A DNA stretch of 64,000 nucleotides from Poseidonia sp. (GTDB taxonomy: Archaea > Thermoplasmatota > Poseidoniia > Poseidoniales > Poseidoniaceae): contig CBFIDD010000003.1 of assembly GCA_965661285.1 (NCBI GenBank), positions 96,001-160,000 on the forward strand, given 5' to 3'. A model generated the notes under the pieces. That model saw only the letters and a program-made list of their open reading frames with translations, was not told the origin of the DNA and made no database searches. Positions 1,364 to 8,431 of this stretch are shown here, in pieces. Every line of letters starts with the position of its first letter. Position 1 is the first letter of the stretch. Position numbers and translations under genes: made by a program.

Positions 1364-1936
1364 ATGAGCGATGCCATGGACCAACTCAAGGCGAGTTTAC
1401 AGAACGCTCCAGTCATTTGGAAAGGCGATTATCCCTACTTCATTCATCCCGTGACCGATGGCGTCCCACGAATGGACCCCCGCGTTCTTCACGCCATCAC
1501 AGAACTCGCCGTCGAGCGCATTGATTGGGACAACATCGACGTGATTCTTGGTATCGAAGCGATGGGACTCCCGCTGACCGCACCGCTGAGCATGGCGACC
1601 GGCATTCCACTGGTCATCGCGCGAAAACGCTCTTACGGCCTTGATGGTGAAGTGGAAATCGATCAGTCCACCGGCTACTCAAAGGGTGCGATGTACCTCA
1701 ACGACTTGCATGAAGGTGAACGCATCGCCATCGTTGACGATGTCCTCTCAACGGGCGGCACGCTTGAAGCGGTCATCGAAGGCGTCAGCCGGTCGGGAGC
1801 AAAGGTTACTGAAATCATGGCTGTTGTCGAAAAAGGTGAGGGATTGGCGCACCTGCAAAACCTCCATCCAGACATTCGAATCCAATCCCTGGTTCGCTTG
1901 ACCATGGACGGCGATACCATCGTCTTGCTGGATTGA
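1364..1936 (+). CDS. hpt: Purine phosphoribosyltransferase (archaeal Hpt/Apt family)
   Basis: YPYFIHPVTDGVP, GIEAMGLPL, ARKR and the PRPP-binding motif IVDDVLSTGGT. Confidence 0.85.
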   Translation: MSDAMDQLKASLQNAPVIWKGDYPYFIHPVTDGVPRMDPRVLHAITELAVERIDWDNIDVILGIEAMGLPLTAPLSMATGIPLVIARKRSYGLDGEVEIDQSTGYSKGAMYLNDLHEGERIAIVDDVLSTGGTLEAVIEGVSRSGAKVTEIMAVVEKGEGLAHLQNLHPDIRIQSLVRLTMDGDTIVLLD

Positions 1937-2039
1937 CACTCCTCGATGAGTTTCCCAACCTTTCCCCGGAGGCTGAAAGACCGATGGCAACTTCGGGAAC
2001 GTGTTAAGATGTGCAGGTCTCGTAGCCGTTGTTGGAAGA

Positions 2040-2070
2040 TTTTGAACAATTCTTTATTACACAAAAGCCT
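2040..2070 (+). promoter_or_regulatory. AT-rich putative TATA-like promoter for the 2082-4120 gene pair
   Basis: TTCTTTATTACA about 25-30 nt upstream of the GTG at 2082, in otherwise GC-rich DNA. Confidence 0.35.
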
Positions 2071-2081
2071 AGGGTTTTGTT

Positions 2082-3092
2082 GTGAACTTTGACATCGTTA
2101 CGAACATTACCCAACAGGTGTGCCAAACCGATGTTGAAAACATCCGAGAAGTGTACCTCGAAGCCATTTGCGTTCTCGCCGAAGCCTCAACTTCCTTTAT
2201 CCTCAAACTCGACGGCGACGAAGCAAAGGTTGTCCGCTCAACCCTTCCGAGCCTGCTTCACGTGTCGCTGAAGAGCGACACCATTCGTCTGGAAAACGAA
2301 TCCTTTTGCTTGAATGAAGACGAGTTATTGGCGTGGTCAGCCCTTCCACCGGTCGGAGATGGACGCCTCAAATCGATCATCCTGCGCCGGTTCACGGTCG
2401 GCTCGGAGAGTTATGTCGCATGTGCGGCTTCATCTCAAACCGATGCCTTCACACAAGATGCATGCGAACAGTTCAACTGGACAGCGCCGCTTGGCGCCCA
2501 CACCATCCGCTTGATTCGAAATTCTGCAAAAAATGAGTTGGAGAAGCGAGCGCTCATGAAGGAAATGGATGCGCTCAAACAAGAATTGGCCGGTGCCCAA
2601 ACCGCAGCAGACCAACTTGAGGGGGCAAACGCCCAACTCTCCAATGCGCTGCTTGAGGTCTCCAGCGCCAAGGCCCAATCGAAAGCCCTTCTCCTCACGG
2701 TGGGCATCGGTATCATCCTCTTTGCCATCTCGGAATTCCGAATTGAGCCCTGGCTGGAAGCATCAGGCGCTTCTCCTTCGACCTTGGTTTACCAAAAAGT
2801 GCTCATCCTCGGGGGTTTGGTACCCATACAAGTGGTCGTGGAACGCTTCATCTCCTCAAAGGTAAATTCCAATGCTTCCGCGATTCGAATCGGTATGTAC
2901 GAAGAAGCACTCGGTGTACTTCTCGAAGACGGAGCGCTCACCGAGAAAGAAATACGGTGGCTCGAACTCTACCGTCGTCAACAAGGTATCCTGCGCGAGG
3001 AAGCACAAGCAGTTGAAGCCCGTTTACGGATGACCATGCTCAAAAAGAAGCGGGAAAACTTACAAAAAACGCCGGCCATTGCCACTGCATAG
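2082..3092 (+). CDS. GAF-like domain + coiled coil + TM hairpin + C-terminal helical domain; putative rhodopsin partner
   Basis: The first ~145 aa show a GAF pattern (LAEASTSFILKLD...LKSIILRRF...AFTQDACEQFNWTAPLGAHTIR). Then a heptad region (ELEKRALMKEMDALKQEL...), two hydrophobic segments (ALLLTVGIGIILFAIS; VLILGGLVPIQVVV), and YEEAL...EDGALTEKE..WL...RRQQGI..EEA. Confidence 0.65.
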   Translation: MNFDIVTNITQQVCQTDVENIREVYLEAICVLAEASTSFILKLDGDEAKVVRSTLPSLLHVSLKSDTIRLENESFCLNEDELLAWSALPPVGDGRLKSIILRRFTVGSESYVACAASSQTDAFTQDACEQFNWTAPLGAHTIRLIRNSAKNELEKRALMKEMDALKQELAGAQTAADQLEGANAQLSNALLEVSSAKAQSKALLLTVGIGIILFAISEFRIEPWLEASGASPSTLVYQKVLILGGLVPIQVVVERFISSKVNSNASAIRIGMYEEALGVLLEDGALTEKEIRWLELYRRQQGILREEAQAVEARLRMTMLKKKRENLQKTPAIATA

Positions 3093-3106
3093 AGGGCGTG
3101 AGAACG

Positions 3107-4120
3107 ATGAAGCAACGCAAGATCAGCAATCCAGTCCTGCTATCAGCTACCCTGTTTCTCTTGACCCTCCTGCCAACCGTATCCGCCGCGGGTGGCTCAA
3201 CCTTCGAAAACGGTGATGCCATGAGCGCCCTTGAACGGGTGACGTACATCTCGTTCGTTGCCATCAGCCTGATGTTCATCGCTGCTGCGTTCTTCTTGTT
3301 CATGGAACGTAACGACGTCGCTCGGCGCCACCGCCCTGCTATCGGTATCGGCGTGATGATCGTCGGTATTGCCGGATTCCAGTATGCGCTGATGCAGGAT
3401 GTTTACATCGCTGATGGCTCCATACCCACCGACTTTCGGTACGCAGACTGGCTTACGACGGTTCCGCTGATGGCCGTCACCTTTGCTCTCCTTGCTGGTC
3501 GTGAGTCGTTCACGAACCACCGCTTGTTCAGCCTGCCCGGCATGTCGGTGCCCGGCATCATCATCGTTGGCTCGTTGTTCATGATGATCGGCGGCTACAT
3601 CGGCCAAGTAGAACTTGACCAAGCGCTCGCTGATGGCGTTGACCCCTCCGGGACACACTGGTTTTTCTTCGCTCAGGGAATGGTCGGCTACCTGACCGTC
3701 TTCCTCATCGTCGGCACCCCGTTTACGGGTTCTTACGGTATTGACGACACCAAAATCGCCGACGAATCCATTCGCCAAACCATGGGTCGGCTCCGACGTC
3801 TTGTCTTGTTTGGATGGCTCATCTATCCGGCGGGATACGTCATCGGCGCCCTCGAATTGGGGGGAGCGGGTGGAGCCGCCGCCATGATGTTGGTCTACAA
3901 CCTCGCGGACCTCGTCAACAAACTGGCCTTTGTCATCATCGTGCTCGTGGGCGCACGAGCCACCGAGGAAGCGCAAGCTGCCTACAGTTCCACCTTCACC
4001 TACGCACCAACAGCGACCAAGAGCGAGCGAGAAGAAGAAGAGGAACACCGAGACAGCCTGCGTGAACTGGCCGCTCTCGCTTCTGAGCTCGTCGATGAAG
4101 AGATCAGCGGTGAACTTTGA
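3107..4120 (+). CDS. Microbial rhodopsin, divergent proteorhodopsin family (D-T-T motif), with N-terminal signal/extra helix and acidic C-tail
   Basis: Helix C FRYADWLTTVPLM, helix F GWLIYPAGY, helix G YNLADLVNK with the retinal Lys. Start is ATG 3107 or GTG 3098. Confidence 0.95.
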   Translation: MKQRKISNPVLLSATLFLLTLLPTVSAAGGSTFENGDAMSALERVTYISFVAISLMFIAAAFFLFMERNDVARRHRPAIGIGVMIVGIAGFQYALMQDVYIADGSIPTDFRYADWLTTVPLMAVTFALLAGRESFTNHRLFSLPGMSVPGIIIVGSLFMMIGGYIGQVELDQALADGVDPSGTHWFFFAQGMVGYLTVFLIVGTPFTGSYGIDDTKIADESIRQTMGRLRRLVLFGWLIYPAGYVIGALELGGAGGAAAMMLVYNLADLVNKLAFVIIVLVGARATEEAQAAYSSTFTYAPTATKSEREEEEEHRDSLRELAALASELVDEEISGEL

Positions 4121-4128
4121 GAGGACGG

Positions 4129-4167
4129 GAAGCCATCGCTCTCTTCTTCTTCGGAATGGGTGGCTTC
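4129..4167 (+). terminator. Possible terminator after the rhodopsin gene
   Basis: Inverted arms GAAGCCA (4129-4135) and TGGCTTC (4161-4167) enclose a pyrimidine tract CTCTCTTCTTCTTC. Confidence 0.3.
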
Positions 4168-4204
4168 ATGAGGGAGGGGCGCCGCCATCGGTTTGAGGGG
4201 AAGC

Positions 4205-5314
4205 ATGGACCTTGACCGCCACGACTTTGAATTGGACGAGTTGATGGAGCGCATCCGTGCCAACGACAACCGTCTGATTGCGCTTCAAGTGCCTGAAGGC
4301 CTCAAGATGCAGGCCCTCGAGATGATGGACACCATCGAAACCGAAACCAGCGCCCAAGTGGTTTTGGCCGCCGACCCTTGCTACGGTGCCTGCGACCTCG
4401 TTCACGACAAGATGCAACTCATGGGCGTGGAACTGGTGGCGCACATGGGCCATTCCCAGATGAACATCGATTCCGGCATGCCCACGCAATTCATCAACGT
4501 CACCTACGACGGCGACCCTGAACTCAAACCCGTCCTTCCGTGGCTAGAACAGCACCGGGCCATGGCCCAAGCACGCCTTGCTGAGCAAGGGCAGTCCACC
4601 GAGTTGAGCGAAGAAGAAGCACAGGAGAAATTCATGGATGCCGTGGGACGCATGGCACCGCTGACCAATACCAAACTTGGTCTGGTTGGCTCCATTCAAC
4701 ACCTGCATCTTCTGCCTGACTTCCACGACCGATTGGAAAAGGCCGGCTTCGACGTCACCATCCCCATCGGCGGCGCTCGACTCTCCTTCCCGGGCCAGGT
4801 GCTTGGCTGCAATTATTCCGGAGACGACGCCTCCATCGGCCACTATCTCTTCCTTGGAAGTGGGGATTTTCACCCCATCGGCCTTGTGCTGCACACCGGC
4901 AAGCCGCTGGCCATGCTCGACCCCTACACCGGCGAGGCCGAGGAAATGTCCTTGCAGCGCATTGAGCGTATCCTGCGTCAGCGCTTCGGCCTCATCATGA
5001 GCGTCCAAGATGCTAACTCCTTTGGCATTCTGATCGGCGAAAAGCCAGGACAAATGCGACGGACCCTTGCGCTGCGCATGAAGCGCATGCTCGCCAAGCA
5101 CGGCAAGAAAGGCTACCTGCTCGCCCTTGAGCATGTCGGACCCGAACTCATCGACTTCTATCCCGTTGATGCCTTCGTCAACACAGCCTGCCCCCGAATT
5201 GCCATCGATGATGCCGTCAAGTACCGCAAGCCGCTCATCACGCCGTTTGAACTTGAAGTGGCCCTCGGTGAGAAGCAGTGGGAGACCGGCTACCAGTTCG
5301 ATGAAATCCCCTGA
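4205..5314 (+). CDS. dph2: Diphthamide biosynthesis enzyme Dph2
   Basis: LQVPEGLK, CYGACD, HMGHS, GQVLGCN, G.G.FHP, K.GQ.R, TACPRIAIDD; the three Fe-S cysteines are present. Confidence 0.95.
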   Translation: MDLDRHDFELDELMERIRANDNRLIALQVPEGLKMQALEMMDTIETETSAQVVLAADPCYGACDLVHDKMQLMGVELVAHMGHSQMNIDSGMPTQFINVTYDGDPELKPVLPWLEQHRAMAQARLAEQGQSTELSEEEAQEKFMDAVGRMAPLTNTKLGLVGSIQHLHLLPDFHDRLEKAGFDVTIPIGGARLSFPGQVLGCNYSGDDASIGHYLFLGSGDFHPIGLVLHTGKPLAMLDPYTGEAEEMSLQRIERILRQRFGLIMSVQDANSFGILIGEKPGQMRRTLALRMKRMLAKHGKKGYLLALEHVGPELIDFYPVDAFVNTACPRIAIDDAVKYRKPLITPFELEVALGEKQWETGYQFDEIP

Positions 5315-5403
5315 ATCGCAGATGCACAGGCGACAAAAAGCGAACGGCACGCCCGTTTGGAGACCACATCTTTTAGAACGGTTGACATCAGCATTCTCTT
5401 GAT

Positions 5404-6609
5404 ATGGTGGACTATCTCGACCGAATCGGCGCTGGGCTCATCATCGCCCATCCAGAACGGTTGGATTTTGACTTCGTTCCCGAAGAACTGGTGGGAAGAG
5501 AGGACGTTCAACGTGAACTGGCCTCCAAATTCTCCAACGTGGCTTCCCCCGAAGGTGCGGCCAGGGCTGTCATCACCGGCCCGGTGGGCAGTGGAAAAAC
5601 CGTGCTCGCCAAGACGTTCTGCAGGGACCTTCAGCGCCACCTTTCGGGAAAACGTGAACTGAAAGTTGCGCACATCAACTGTCGAAACGCCTCCACCAGC
5701 ATGCGGGTCGCCCAACGCATCCTCCACCAGTTTGACCCCGGCCATCCCGACCGTGGCCTTTCACTTGGTGAGATGCTCCTCAGCCTTCGCAAAATGCTTC
5801 GACGTACATCCACGCACCTCATCGTCGTGTTGGACGAAGTGGACCACATGCTGCGTCGTTCTGGTGATGAGCTGCTGTATCAACTGCTTCGGATTGACGA
5901 AGACCAGGACGGCACGGGAACGCTATCGTTGATGCTCATCAGTCAAGAACAGGTACTCGACGTGCTCGAAACGGCCGTGCTGTCAAAGTTTGGCCAGTCC
6001 AATCATCTACGCATTAAGCCCTACACCGTTGACGGATTGGAAGCCATCGCTCGCCAGCGGGCAGAAATGGCACTGGTCCCGGGAACATGGAGCGATGCCA
6101 CCGTGCGCTTGCTGGCAGAGCGAGCGGCTGCCAGCGGTGATGCGCGGCGAGTGATTGAGTACCTCAGCAGCGCAGCAGAACGTTGTGAATTCCGTCAAGA
6201 CGGGCACACCGAGCAGGTCATCACCGTTGAGGACATTCACGCCATGAGCGACACCGTAGCGGTTGACACCAAATCACGTCTCGAAGTGGTGGACGACCTC
6301 CCCGCTCAAGGCATGCTGATTTTGCTCGCCATGTGCAGGCGCCTTCGAACCGAAGAAAGCGTGACGATGGGCGACGTTGAACGCCTCTACGCCGTGGTTT
6401 GCGAGGAGTACCAACAGAAGCCAAAAAGTCACACAACGCTTTGGAAATACGTCAAACAAATCGAACGAGAGGGTGTGATCAGCACTCGCGTGGCCACCGT
6501 GCCGGGCGGACGAGGACGTACGACCCACCTGAGCATGCCCCACTTTCTTCCAGCCGACATCGCAAGCAGGTTGGAATTGCTCTTGCCCAAGCAACTTCAG
6601 CGTCGCTGA
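5404..6609 (+). CDS. cdc6: Orc1/Cdc6 replication initiator
   Basis: F.PEELVGRE, Walker A GPVGSGKT, HINCR, Walker B VVLDEVD, GDARR, C-terminal winged helix ending GRGRTT. Confidence 0.93.
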   Translation: MVDYLDRIGAGLIIAHPERLDFDFVPEELVGREDVQRELASKFSNVASPEGAARAVITGPVGSGKTVLAKTFCRDLQRHLSGKRELKVAHINCRNASTSMRVAQRILHQFDPGHPDRGLSLGEMLLSLRKMLRRTSTHLIVVLDEVDHMLRRSGDELLYQLLRIDEDQDGTGTLSLMLISQEQVLDVLETAVLSKFGQSNHLRIKPYTVDGLEAIARQRAEMALVPGTWSDATVRLLAERAAASGDARRVIEYLSSAAERCEFRQDGHTEQVITVEDIHAMSDTVAVDTKSRLEVVDDLPAQGMLILLAMCRRLRTEESVTMGDVERLYAVVCEEYQQKPKSHTTLWKYVKQIEREGVISTRVATVPGGRGRTTHLSMPHFLPADIASRLELLLPKQLQRR

Positions 6610-6676
6610 GGCCTGCACGTGAGACGATGGGGCTAAATACGGGTCACGAGTCGGACAAATCCCGAGAGGTGCTCCT

Positions 6677-7153
6677 ATGGCAGAATTCATTGCAGTGGTC
6701 AACGACACGGACCCAAAGAACGGCGGAAAATCCTACGCCTTGAAAATCACCGGAAACAACCACGCCCAAATGCTCGGAAAGCGAATTGGCGATGTTGTGG
6801 ACGGTCTCTTCGTTGGCGAGGGCGACAAAACCCTCTCCGGCTACAAACTCGAAATCACGGGCGGCTCCGACAAAACCGGAACCCCCATGCGCCGAGATCT
6901 CGAAGGCGGCAACCGACAGTCCATCCTCGTGACCCAGTCGACCGGGTACAAGGGCGAAGTCATCGTCAACAAGAAGAAGGGCGGCGAACAGAAGCGCTTC
7001 CGATACAAGCCAGACGGTCTGCGTAAGCGACGAAACTTCCGTGGAAACACGGTGACCCAAGACACCCGTCAAATCAACCTCCGAGTGGTTGAATCTGGAA
7101 AGAAACCGCTCGCCACCATCCTCGGCGCTGAGGGCGAGGAAGCATCGGAGTGA
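6677..7153 (+). CDS. rps6e: 30S ribosomal protein S6e
   Basis: GKRIGDVVDG, LEITGGSDKTGTPMR.D, GLRKRRNFRGN, QINL. Confidence 0.95.
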   Translation: MAEFIAVVNDTDPKNGGKSYALKITGNNHAQMLGKRIGDVVDGLFVGEGDKTLSGYKLEITGGSDKTGTPMRRDLEGGNRQSILVTQSTGYKGEVIVNKKKGGEQKRFRYKPDGLRKRRNFRGNTVTQDTRQINLRVVESGKKPLATILGAEGEEASE

Positions 7154-7192
7154 ACCCGAGAGGGTAATCGAGGAACATAAGGAGAGGGAAGC

Positions 7193-8431
7193 ATGGCACG
7201 AAAGCTTCCCGCTCAACCCGAGGTGAACATCGGTTTGGTCGGTCACGTCGACCACGGAAAAACCACCTTGACTCAAGCCTTGTCCGGTGTTTGGACCGAT
7301 ACCCATTCCGAGGAACGAAAGCGAGGCATCTCCATCAAACTCGGCTATGCGGACACGGCCTTCTACAAGGACGACAAAGGGCAATACTACGCCACGGGCA
7401 AACGTCCTGGAGGTGGCGACGACGTCGAGGATGAACTCGAGCGCGTGGTCTCCTTTGTCGATGCTCCCGGCCACGAGACGCTGATGGCCATCATGATCAC
7501 CGGCGCGTCCATCATGGACGGCGCCATGCTGATGGTGGCAGCCAACGAAACGTGCCCGCAGCCCCAAACCCGAGAACATCTCATGGCACTGGAGATTGCA
7601 GGGATTGAAAACATCGTCATCGTCCAGAACAAAATTGACCTGGTATCAAAGGAACGAGCGATGGAGTCCCACGCTGAGATCAAAGCCTTCCTCAAAGGAA
7701 CGATTGCACAAGACGCACCCATCATTCCGGTTTCGGCACATCATGACGTGAACCTTGACGTGTTGATCGAGGCCATTGAAGCCACCATTCCTACGCCTGA
7801 CCGCTCGAAGGACAAGCGCTCCATCATGCATGTCGCACGCTCGTTTGACATCAACAGGCCGGGCACTCGACCGGCCAAACTGCGAGGCGGCGTGATCGGT
7901 GGCAGCATTGTTGAAGGCGAGTTTGCCGAAGGCGACGAGATCGTCATCGGACCCGGTCGGAAAATCGAGAAAGGAAACAAATCGACTTGGGAGCCGATTG
8001 AGGCCGTGGTGAGCAGCATGCAGGGCGGAGGCCTCAGCCTTGACAAGATGCACGCAGGCGGCCTCTGTGGAATGGCCACCTTCCTCGACCCCTCCATCAC
8101 AACCTCCGACAACCTCTCGGGCCAAGTTGTGGCTCGCAAAGGCGACCTCCCAGAGGTCCACAGCAGCGTCTCCATCAGCGTCAACCTGATGTCGCACATG
8201 GCGGCAGGTGATGGCGAAGCAGCGGAGAAGATTCAACCGCTGCGCAACAACGAGATGCTCATGCTCAACGTGGCAACCGCCACCTCCGTGGGCACGACCC
8301 GCAACGCCGAGAAGACGAGAACTGACCTTGAGTTGCGTCTTCCAATCTGTGCTGATAAAGGTCAGCGCATCTCACTCTCCCGCCGAATCGGTTCCCGTTG
8401 GCGACTGATTGGCTACGGCACCATCGAGTGA
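7193..8431 (+). CDS. eif2g: Translation initiation factor 2 subunit gamma
   Basis: QPEVNIGLVGHVDHGKTT, RGISIKLGYA, DAPGHE, QNKID, RSFDINRPG, RWRLIGYG. Confidence 0.97.
   Translation: MARKLPAQPEVNIGLVGHVDHGKTTLTQALSGVWTDTHSEERKRGISIKLGYADTAFYKDDKGQYYATGKRPGGGDDVEDELERVVSFVDAPGHETLMAIMITGASIMDGAMLMVAANETCPQPQTREHLMALEIAGIENIVIVQNKIDLVSKERAMESHAEIKAFLKGTIAQDAPIIPVSAHHDVNLDVLIEAIEATIPTPDRSKDKRSIMHVARSFDINRPGTRPAKLRGGVIGGSIVEGEFAEGDEIVIGPGRKIEKGNKSTWEPIEAVVSSMQGGGLSLDKMHAGGLCGMATFLDPSITTSDNLSGQVVARKGDLPEVHSSVSISVNLMSHMAAGDGEAAEKIQPLRNNEMLMLNVATATSVGTTRNAEKTRTDLELRLPICADKGQRISLSRRIGSRWRLIGYGTIE

Follow-up and report, generated by a model that had tools for sequence, protein, structure and literature searches.

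A donor-less rhodopsin and its GAF-hairpin partner protein as a candidate light-sensing pair in Marine Group II archaea

The rhodopsin locus

The window analysed here, a stretch of 64,000 nucleotides from Poseidonia sp. (assembly GCA_965661285.1, contig CBFIDD010000003.1, positions 96,001 to 160,000 of the forward strand), carries near its beginning two consecutive genes on the plus strand: a partner gene coding for 336 amino acids (2082..3092) and, directly downstream, a gene for a rhodopsin without a proton-donor residue, hereafter the donor-less rhodopsin (3098..4120; 340 amino acids counted from GTG 3098). The stop codon of the partner lies 5 nucleotides before GTG 3098 and 14 nucleotides before an in-frame ATG at 3107, the likelier start codon of the rhodopsin because its closest homologue (P0001) begins at the residue aligned with M4. 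Marine Group II (MGII) archaea, the host lineage, are uncultured and count as some of the most abundant microorganisms in surface ocean waters; in the accessible parts of the literature their rhodopsins have so far been read only as proton pumps (PMC6461757, PMC6336850). On balance, the donor-less rhodopsin is better explained as a photosensor that signals via the upstream partner, and without chemotaxis proteins, than as an energy-conserving pump.

The open reading frame 3098..4120 matches the Pfam family Bac_rhodopsin (PF01036) with 110.3 bits against a curated cut-off of 24.6 (E 1.3e-31), and the nearest solved structure is that of green proteorhodopsin (GPR; 8cqc, E 4.3e-27). Alignment with this structure places D97, T101, L105 and E108 of GPR on D117, T121, M125 and T128, His75 on Q95, and the helix G aspartate and retinal lysine on D271 and K275, which is the assignment that a preliminary description of the window had made from the letters alone. 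The codons were confirmed in the DNA: the helix C motif (3446..3481) comprises the Schiff-base counterion and acceptor D117 (GAC 3446-3448), T121 (ACG 3458-3460), the tuning residue M125 (ATG 3470-3472) and the donor position T128 (ACC 3479-3481); Q95 is encoded by CAG 3380-3382, and the helix G pair (3908..3922) by GAC 3908-3910 and AAA 3920-3922. Among the features of DTE and DTK pumps, D117 and T121 are thus present, whereas the donor Glu or Lys at position 108 and His75 are absent.

An AlphaFold2 (AF2) model of the rhodopsin has seven transmembrane (TM) helices (mean predicted local distance difference test, pLDDT, 79.7; predicted TM-score, pTM, 0.74), and proteorhodopsins are its top structural matches in Foldseek (TM-score 0.86, normalised to the target). 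Across 30 aligned rows that include ordinary proteorhodopsins, R114, D117, W118, T121, M162, G166, W240, Y243 and P244 are invariant, and D271 and K275 are kept in at least 90%. The chromophore site is intact in its retinal lysine, its counterion pair and its pocket residues, and binding of retinal is predicted; a slow photocycle and green absorption would be expected of such a protein. A match to Blh, the retinal synthesis family (PF15461), was found neither in the window's genome (G000) nor in G084, G190, G050 and G078, and control genomes gave none either. NCBIfam yielded no model for the rhodopsin, its paralogue, the partner or the hairpin protein described below.

The genome G000 (1.98 Mb, 93% complete) encodes two rhodopsins. 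The second one (285 amino acids; minus strand, G000:C4:173443-174300, equivalent to L002:1468..2325) has a D-T-K motif, His75 and Met105 and is of the Archaea clade B pump type. According to the available text of PMC6461757 and PMC6336850, clade B consists of Lys-donor rhodopsins from Marine Group II; for one member, outward proton pumping has been shown (Supplementary Fig. 1 legend of PMC12137139). The two paralogues of G000 are 37% identical and share the first five residues, MRTMK, which in the donor-less rhodopsin open a hydrophobic, signal-peptide-like stretch ending in VSAAGG (3098..3187, plus strand; read from the translation and aligned with the paralogue), where cleavage is putative.

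Compared with eight ordinary proteorhodopsins, the donor-less rhodopsin has gained 8 residues in the C-D loop, about 11 in the D-E loop and 3 in the E-F loop. The C-D loop on the cytoplasmic side (residues 134-150; 3497..3547, plus strand) has low pLDDT in the model, and in its region P147, G148, S150, V151, P152 and G153 are invariant within the donor-less clade; the same holds for G206, P208, G211, Y213, G214 and D216 in the cytoplasmic E-F loop (residues 206-222; 3713..3763, plus strand). On the extracellular side, Q170, which is Glu in clade B and in proteorhodopsins, precedes the D-E insert of about 11 residues (3605..3658, plus strand). Helix G ends near residue 287 in the AF2 model and is followed by a cytoplasmic tail of about 53 residues (288-340; 3959..4117, plus strand), in agreement with the charged C-terminal tail of about 50 residues noted earlier; it contains an acidic stretch, a helix with the conserved motif L-x-E-L-A-A-L and a C-terminus that is likewise acidic and ends in G/D-E/D-L, and the model has a low-confidence helix at 309-332. 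Comparison with the DTK paralogue divides these features into two groups. Most of the enlargement of the C-D and E-F loops is common to both proteins, the C-D loop of the clade B paralogue being merely 3 residues and the E-F loop 1 residue shorter, whereas the donor-less clade alone has the D-E insert and the tail.

A further question is whether the rhodopsin might carry a carotenoid antenna. Phe191 is invariant in the donor-less clade and in the proteorhodopsins compared, and Leu occupies this place in 22 of 22 clade B rhodopsins. We take residue 191 to be the fenestration position, by alignment and from the numbering of bacteriorhodopsin. An unusual Leu forms the fenestration of clade B, as described in the accessible part of PMC12137139. 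The presence of Phe, which had been put forward as an argument against an antenna, is consistent with the lack of one.

A separate clade without donor

A search of 5.8 billion proteins (E <= 1e-5) returned 61 matches, among them 27 cluster representatives of 236-337 amino acids at 56-92% identity, followed by a gap to proteorhodopsins at 34% or less. In 22 aligned members of the clade the donor position is occupied by T (14), S (3), V (2), M, C or L (1 each), and never by D, E or K; the Thr of the preliminary description holds for the window's protein without being a conserved feature of the clade. Within the clade, M125, the cytoplasmic loops and the residues of the chromophore site do not vary. 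The position of His75 is Q in 21 of the 22 members, H being found in P0025, and H in all 22 clade B rhodopsins as well as in all 30 proteorhodopsins compared. The replacements extend beyond the donor, since at several positions that are the same in clade B and in proteorhodopsins the clade has fixed a different residue: Q95 for H, Q170 for E at the outer, extracellular end of helix D, Q100 for R, L98 and F113 each for Y, and L283 for W (P0026, P0027, P0042, P0059, P0060, P0061 and L011 were excluded from this comparison of columns).

At 58% identity or more, the rhodopsin is carried by 9 of 301 genomes of the order Poseidoniales, G000 included, and all other matches are at 41% or less. The carriers all belong to the Poseidoniaceae: 7 of the 43 genomes of the window's genus have the gene, as do 2 of the 8 genomes of a second genus. 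When each prokaryotic species was represented by a single genome, a scan likewise recovered the clade from 9 records, whose titles read Poseidoniales, Poseidoniaceae, Poseidonia or Methanobacteriota archaeon; after these came bacterial proteorhodopsins at 35% identity or less. A clade B rhodopsin accompanies the donor-less one in all 7 carriers of the window's genus, that is, in 7 of the 9 carriers overall.

In a tree of 89 rows (33 of the donor-less clade, 22 of clade B and 34 proteorhodopsins; the fragments P0026 and P0027 and L011, which contains a run of N, were excluded), the donor-less clade lies on one side of a branch with a Shimodaira-Hasegawa-like approximate likelihood ratio (SH-aLRT) of 99 and a stem of 2.45 changes per column. 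Clade B forms a branch of its own (SH-aLRT 98) and joins the donor-less clade with a support of 86. The rhodopsin of the window is therefore distinct from clade B by its separate branch and by T128 and F191 in place of DTK and the fenestration Leu. The donor-less clade appears, on a long branch, as sister to the Archaea clade B (DTK) pumps within the sample of this tree, a reading confined to that sample because the tree comes from a quick search without bootstrap, with limited outgroups and no named xanthorhodopsin, ESR, HeimdallR or DTG/DTS references. The deepest-branching of the tail-less lineages is the P0025/L134 type, which has retained His75. It had been suspected that the clade might already be known from MGII; the accessible text of PMC6461757 and PMC6336850 describes only the donor-bearing clades A (Glu) and B (Lys), the tree places the window's rhodopsin outside clade B, and our literature search found no paper describing the donor-less clade or the pair of rhodopsin and partner.

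Linkage of rhodopsin and partner

The association between the two genes was assessed at 24 non-redundant loci, namely in the window, in 9 species genomes and on 14 metagenome contigs whose sequence was usable (L122, which starts inside the gene, was excluded). Wherever the rhodopsin is tailed, with 47-67 residues past the retinal Lys motif, the partner lies directly upstream on the same strand (13/13); next to tail-less rhodopsins, with 20-31 residues past this motif, it occurs in none of 11 cases. The association is perfect and, as it requires only two state changes on the tree and therefore yields one or two independent contrasts, too few for a sign test, no more than suggestive. In the window's genus the pair has aprt and dph2 as its neighbours; in the second genus it has a P-type ATPase gene on one side and a catalase-peroxidase-like gene on the other. 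As the neighbourhoods differ, rhodopsin and partner move as a two-gene unit. An apparent fusion of partner and rhodopsin of 626 amino acids in G190 was dismissed as artefactual, since a run of N separates the two genes. In one tail-less, partner-less lineage (L046:4972-5952, L050:2338-3327), the rhodopsin gene is followed in convergent orientation by a gene whose product, a membrane protein, has histidine-box motifs and by eye resembles a desaturase or hydroxylase.

The partner gene product

The partner is predicted to consist of a GAF-fold N-domain (residues ~1-133), a long helix (134-228) that passes from a coiled coil into the first TM segment, a short acidic loop on the outside, a second helix (232-281) with the second TM segment, and a small two-helix, TerB-like C-domain (288-329). 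The AF2 model (pLDDT 79.6) has the corresponding parts: an alpha/beta N-domain, a helix of 95 residues, a three-residue turn, the second helix and the two-helix C-domain. The family comprises 21 cluster representatives at 47-98% identity, and the second half of the protein, that is, the hairpin and the C-domain, is very strongly conserved. No Pfam or NCBIfam match was obtained; at E values up to 5 only weak coiled-coil Pfam matches appeared, and no Band_7/flotillin. An ESM Atlas search with the C-terminal half led to a single archaeal hypothetical-protein cluster at 0.89.

The GAF fold of the N-domain emerges from structural comparison: Foldseek matches 6oza_A with E 5.5e-6 and probability 1.00, and VIA-align gives Z values of 14.7 and 14.5 over 143-148 residues, the former for 6saw_A with a root-mean-square deviation of 3.1 over 143 residues; these alignments span residues 1-176 of the partner and barely cover the fold of hairpin and C-domain. 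Pfam GAF itself does not match the window's partner and does match its relative P0213, with 23.4 bits against a cut-off of 22.4. TerB (PF05099) matches the C-domain class in distant relatives, the hairpin paralogue's own match being weak (E 0.26). Since Lys and Arg flank the hairpin on both its N- and C-side, around an acidic loop, its two ends are presumably cytoplasmic, which would put the GAF domain, the long helix and the C-domain on the same side as the rhodopsin tail. A predicted complex of rhodopsin 31-340 and partner 150-336 received scores of 0.12 and 0.09 (mark 0.32), which weighs neither way. A sigma-70 promoter and terminator scan of 1800..4400, which carries no weight in an archaeal host, gave 0 promoter-like and 2 terminator-like signals; the latter lay on the minus strand, and shuffled sequences gave as many.

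A hairpin module shared with H-NOX and other sensors

Paralogues of the partner's C-terminal half, of ~205-225 amino acids or longer with N-terminal extensions, occur in the same genomes. One of them, a protein of 208 amino acids in G000, is encoded directly after an H-NOX gene (PF07700, HNOB, E 4.7e-38) outside the window at G000:C3:184648-185808 (L042:790-1974). Such H-NOX genes are present in 20 of the 301 Poseidoniales genomes sampled, all of the window's family; of the 9 genomes with the donor-less rhodopsin 8 have one, versus 12 of the 292 other genomes, these genomes being kin and not independent. Among 23 H-NOX places in total, 22 were examined, and at 21 of these the hairpin gene lies directly downstream on the same strand; the exception is a divergent second H-NOX of G084 (L153; G084:C363:14867-15346) with 47% identity to that of G000 and no hairpin gene within 1.5 kb downstream. 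At one place (L142; G070:C14, ~865-1501), the hairpin gene after H-NOX matches in two pieces with a break near 125-132, possibly due to a frameshift or an indel. The H-NOX pair stands back to back with the rhodopsin locus at two loci (L047/L148 and L045; also L126), and at most places the stand-alone and H-NOX-paired hairpin proteins have no adjoining rhodopsin. Our literature search found no paper on H-NOX in Marine Group II archaea.

A profile of the hairpin module was searched against 1.84 billion representatives and gave 1079 matches, 93 of them at E <= 1e-10; 30 matches, picked by hand from 150 listed so as to cover the match classes and not at random, were scanned for domains. Three groups can be distinguished: (i) 6 proteins match by the C-domain only, often in 3-8 copies per protein and with Pfam TerB, Tic110 or DUF533; (ii) 13 carry the coiled coil and hairpin behind Response_reg plus PAS (4), Response_reg (1), PAS (2), TPR (5) or GAF (1), and one of these, P0213, matches the C-domain as well as the coiled coil and hairpin; (iii) 11 have no family above cut-off. 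A C-terminal coiled coil with a two-TM hairpin for which there is no Pfam or NCBIfam model was observed in P0236, P0244, P0243 and P0233, among others. The homology of the hairpins goes beyond a coiled-coil bias, because all aligned relatives share a core motif (L-F-x-x-S-E ... E-P-x-x-E, then K ... P-x-E ... E-R). In one protein, whose receiver part resembles a family of response regulators linked to nitric oxide (NO), the hairpin stands in the place of a phosphodiesterase; from this case, and from its location behind receiver, PAS, TPR and GAF domains, the hairpin takes the position of an output domain. The coiled coil plus hairpin thus has the appearance of a membrane module for signal output that has not yet been named. 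Both the H-NOX link of the hairpin paralogues and the position of the hairpin at the output end of receiver, PAS, TPR and GAF proteins are observations new to this analysis.

A putative light-signalling mechanism

The sensor interpretation is favoured because the chromophore site is intact, residues of the pumps have been lost, a pump paralogue is present in most carriers, a dedicated partner is made of signalling parts and the partner's module serves H-NOX as well. The donor-less rhodopsin with its partner is probably a new kind of light sensor, which could function in the following manner: Light would isomerise retinal, and D117 would take the proton of the Schiff base. In the absence of a donor, the deprotonated state may be long-lived, and the movement on the cytoplasmic side may pass to the partner by either or both of two ways: sideways to the membrane hairpin, or through the conserved loops and the tail to the GAF domain and its long helix. 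The output device would then be the hairpin together with the TerB-like end; one idea is an ion flux through an oligomer lined by the conserved acidic residues of the hairpin. Such a pathway would operate without chemotaxis proteins, and a chemotaxis-like route is not indicated in G000 because the MCP signalling domain (PF00015) was not found in this 93% complete genome. It is conceivable, though doubtful, that light (through the rhodopsin) and gas (through H-NOX) feed one and the same unrecognised hairpin output module in planktonic archaea, a module that also terminates signalling proteins of bacterial type with receiver, PAS and TPR domains and is perhaps a regulated ion-conducting oligomer, and that this constitutes a chemotaxis-independent sensory-rhodopsin pathway of a new type. 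If so, it would also bring to light an output domain of signal transduction that is widespread and has no name yet.

The earlier proposal of a sensor with cytoplasmic docking surfaces is borne out in part: a conserved GAF-hairpin partner exists, it is absent where the tail is absent, and hairpin paralogues are paired with H-NOX. The C-D and E-F loops, to which docking had also been ascribed, are indeed longer than in proteorhodopsins; as the pumping clade B paralogue shares most of this enlargement, it is not specific to a sensor. This is one of several points that weigh against a photosensor. Its downstream pathway is hypothetical, and no MCP signalling domain was found in G000 (93% complete). 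The two changes of state that account for the association of tail and partner amount to 1-2 independent pairs, three lineages have neither tail nor partner, so that the rhodopsin is able to exist without the latter, and the domain contexts of the hairpin come from a hand-picked set. Two carriers, G084 (90% complete) and G190 (82%), have the donor-less rhodopsin alone, which would also suit a role in energy conservation. D117, T121, R114 and D271 are all kept, which is compatible with outward proton transfer, and DTG and DTS rhodopsins, as described in the accessible part of PMC8927995, pump without a donor.

Much of this would fit the main alternative, a donor-less outward pump similar to the DTG/DTS type, which draws protons straight from the cytoplasm and for which the upstream protein is a regulator, an assembly factor or unrelated. 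Besides the intact residues, K275 among them, the precedent of PMC8927995, the two genomes without another rhodopsin and the tail-less, partner-less members, it is supported by the nearest relatives, which are pumps. We nevertheless consider it rather unlikely: a clade B pump is already present in 7 of 9 carriers, His75, the Glu at 170 and several polar residues common to both pump groups have been replaced in addition to the donor, the stem branch is long, and the rhodopsin is tightly linked to a protein made of signalling parts. The likeness to the DTG/DTS pumps, one of which has been crystallised (PMC8927995) and which were compared by description only, lies in the absence of a carboxylate or Lys at the donor position; a dedicated signalling partner is not reported for them in the available text of PMC8927995.

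The flow of information might also be reversed, the GAF-hairpin protein sensing a cytoplasmic ligand and turning the activity of the rhodopsin, as a pump or as a leak, on and off. Binding of small ligands is common among GAF domains, and the partner has a GAF fold; the hairpin, moreover, stands at the output end of receiver and PAS proteins and should therefore act on something in the membrane. The stand-alone and H-NOX-paired hairpins, on the other hand, mostly lack an adjoining rhodopsin, so that a rhodopsin is not needed as the target of a hairpin, and this alternative is regarded as improbable. Still more improbable is a light-independent organiser of the membrane, in which the coiled-coil partner would play the role of flotillin. 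The model for it is the flotillin-associated rhodopsins (FArhodopsins) of SAR11 and others, which, in the accessible parts of PMC10308929 and PMC5864233, have a DTT motif, share a transcript with a coiled-coil membrane protein and showed no binding of retinal; PsFAR chains are indeed among the sequence and fold matches, and a pump paralogue accompanies both kinds of protein. In the window's rhodopsin, however, the pocket residues of working proteorhodopsins are all kept, in contrast to the degenerate retinal pocket described for FArhodopsins (PMC10308929; 10.1101/2025.04.29.651185, as far as accessible), and the match to 9r23 (E 1.6e-17) is weaker than that to green proteorhodopsin (E 4.3e-27), the sequence being nearer to the latter than to PsFAR. 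The partner has a GAF fold and belongs to no Pfam family, Band_7/flotillin included, and the host is archaeal. Olson's DTT group, from the available portion of PMC5864233, has mainly Thr105 and is found at 200-1000 m, as opposed to the Met125 that is invariant in the donor-less clade. Identity with a FArhodopsin was rejected because the pocket is conserved and no flotillin (SPFH/Band_7) gene neighbours the rhodopsin.

Relation to known systems

By descent, the donor-less rhodopsin resembles the clade B rhodopsins such as ACB-G35, with which it shares the host lineage, 37-41% identity, the sister position in the tree, the Met tuning residue, the signal-peptide-like N-terminus and the enlarged C-D and E-F loops. 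It differs from them by T, S, M, V, C or L instead of the Lys donor, Gln for His75, Gln170 for Glu and Phe for Leu at the fenestration, and by the additional D-E insert of ~11 residues, the tail of ~53 amino acids and the dedicated partner gene.

In its organization, the pair recalls the htrI-sopI and htrII-sopII operons of haloarchaea, in which the gene of a two-TM transducer is located directly upstream of the rhodopsin gene. Common to both are a donor-less rhodopsin directly downstream of a same-strand two-TM protein with cytoplasmic helices and the presence of a separate pump. The rhodopsin of the window is of proteorhodopsin and not of bacteriorhodopsin descent, and its partner is composed of GAF, hairpin and a TerB-like end and has no HAMP or MCP domain. 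By analogy, the system thus resembles a haloarchaeal sensory rhodopsin with its upstream transducer, yet it would do so without the HAMP and MCP domains that define that family. A sensor derived from the proteorhodopsin branch is not without precedent: the Proteo-SRs (2023, PMC10519204), in the part of the report available, carry Tyr in place of the helix C counterion and are associated with Htr-like transducers. The donor-less rhodopsin, in contrast, has kept D117, and its partner is not Htr-like; a Proteo-SR was rejected because the counterion is Asp, not Tyr. With the bacterial H-NOX proteins and their neighbouring histidine kinases, cyclases or MCPs, the pair of H-NOX and hairpin gene has in common that a small sensor stands beside a signal-output protein, which in the archaeal case is a membrane hairpin with a TerB-like end and not an enzyme or MCP.

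A light sensor of this kind would mean that MGII cells perceive light as information, without chemotaxis proteins or the known types of rhodopsin transducer. The hairpin of the partner ties the candidate sensor to gas sensing by H-NOX and to the C-terminal module of receiver, PAS and TPR proteins. A slow, green-absorbing rhodopsin without donor that is coupled to a membrane effector may also be of interest for optogenetics.

Neighbouring genes

Downstream of the rhodopsin, the region 4193..8431 contains archaeal housekeeping genes, beginning with a diphthamide synthase (PF01866, E 1.8e-72); by eye, this gene is followed by an Orc1/Cdc6-like open reading frame, ribosomal protein S6e and aIF2-gamma.

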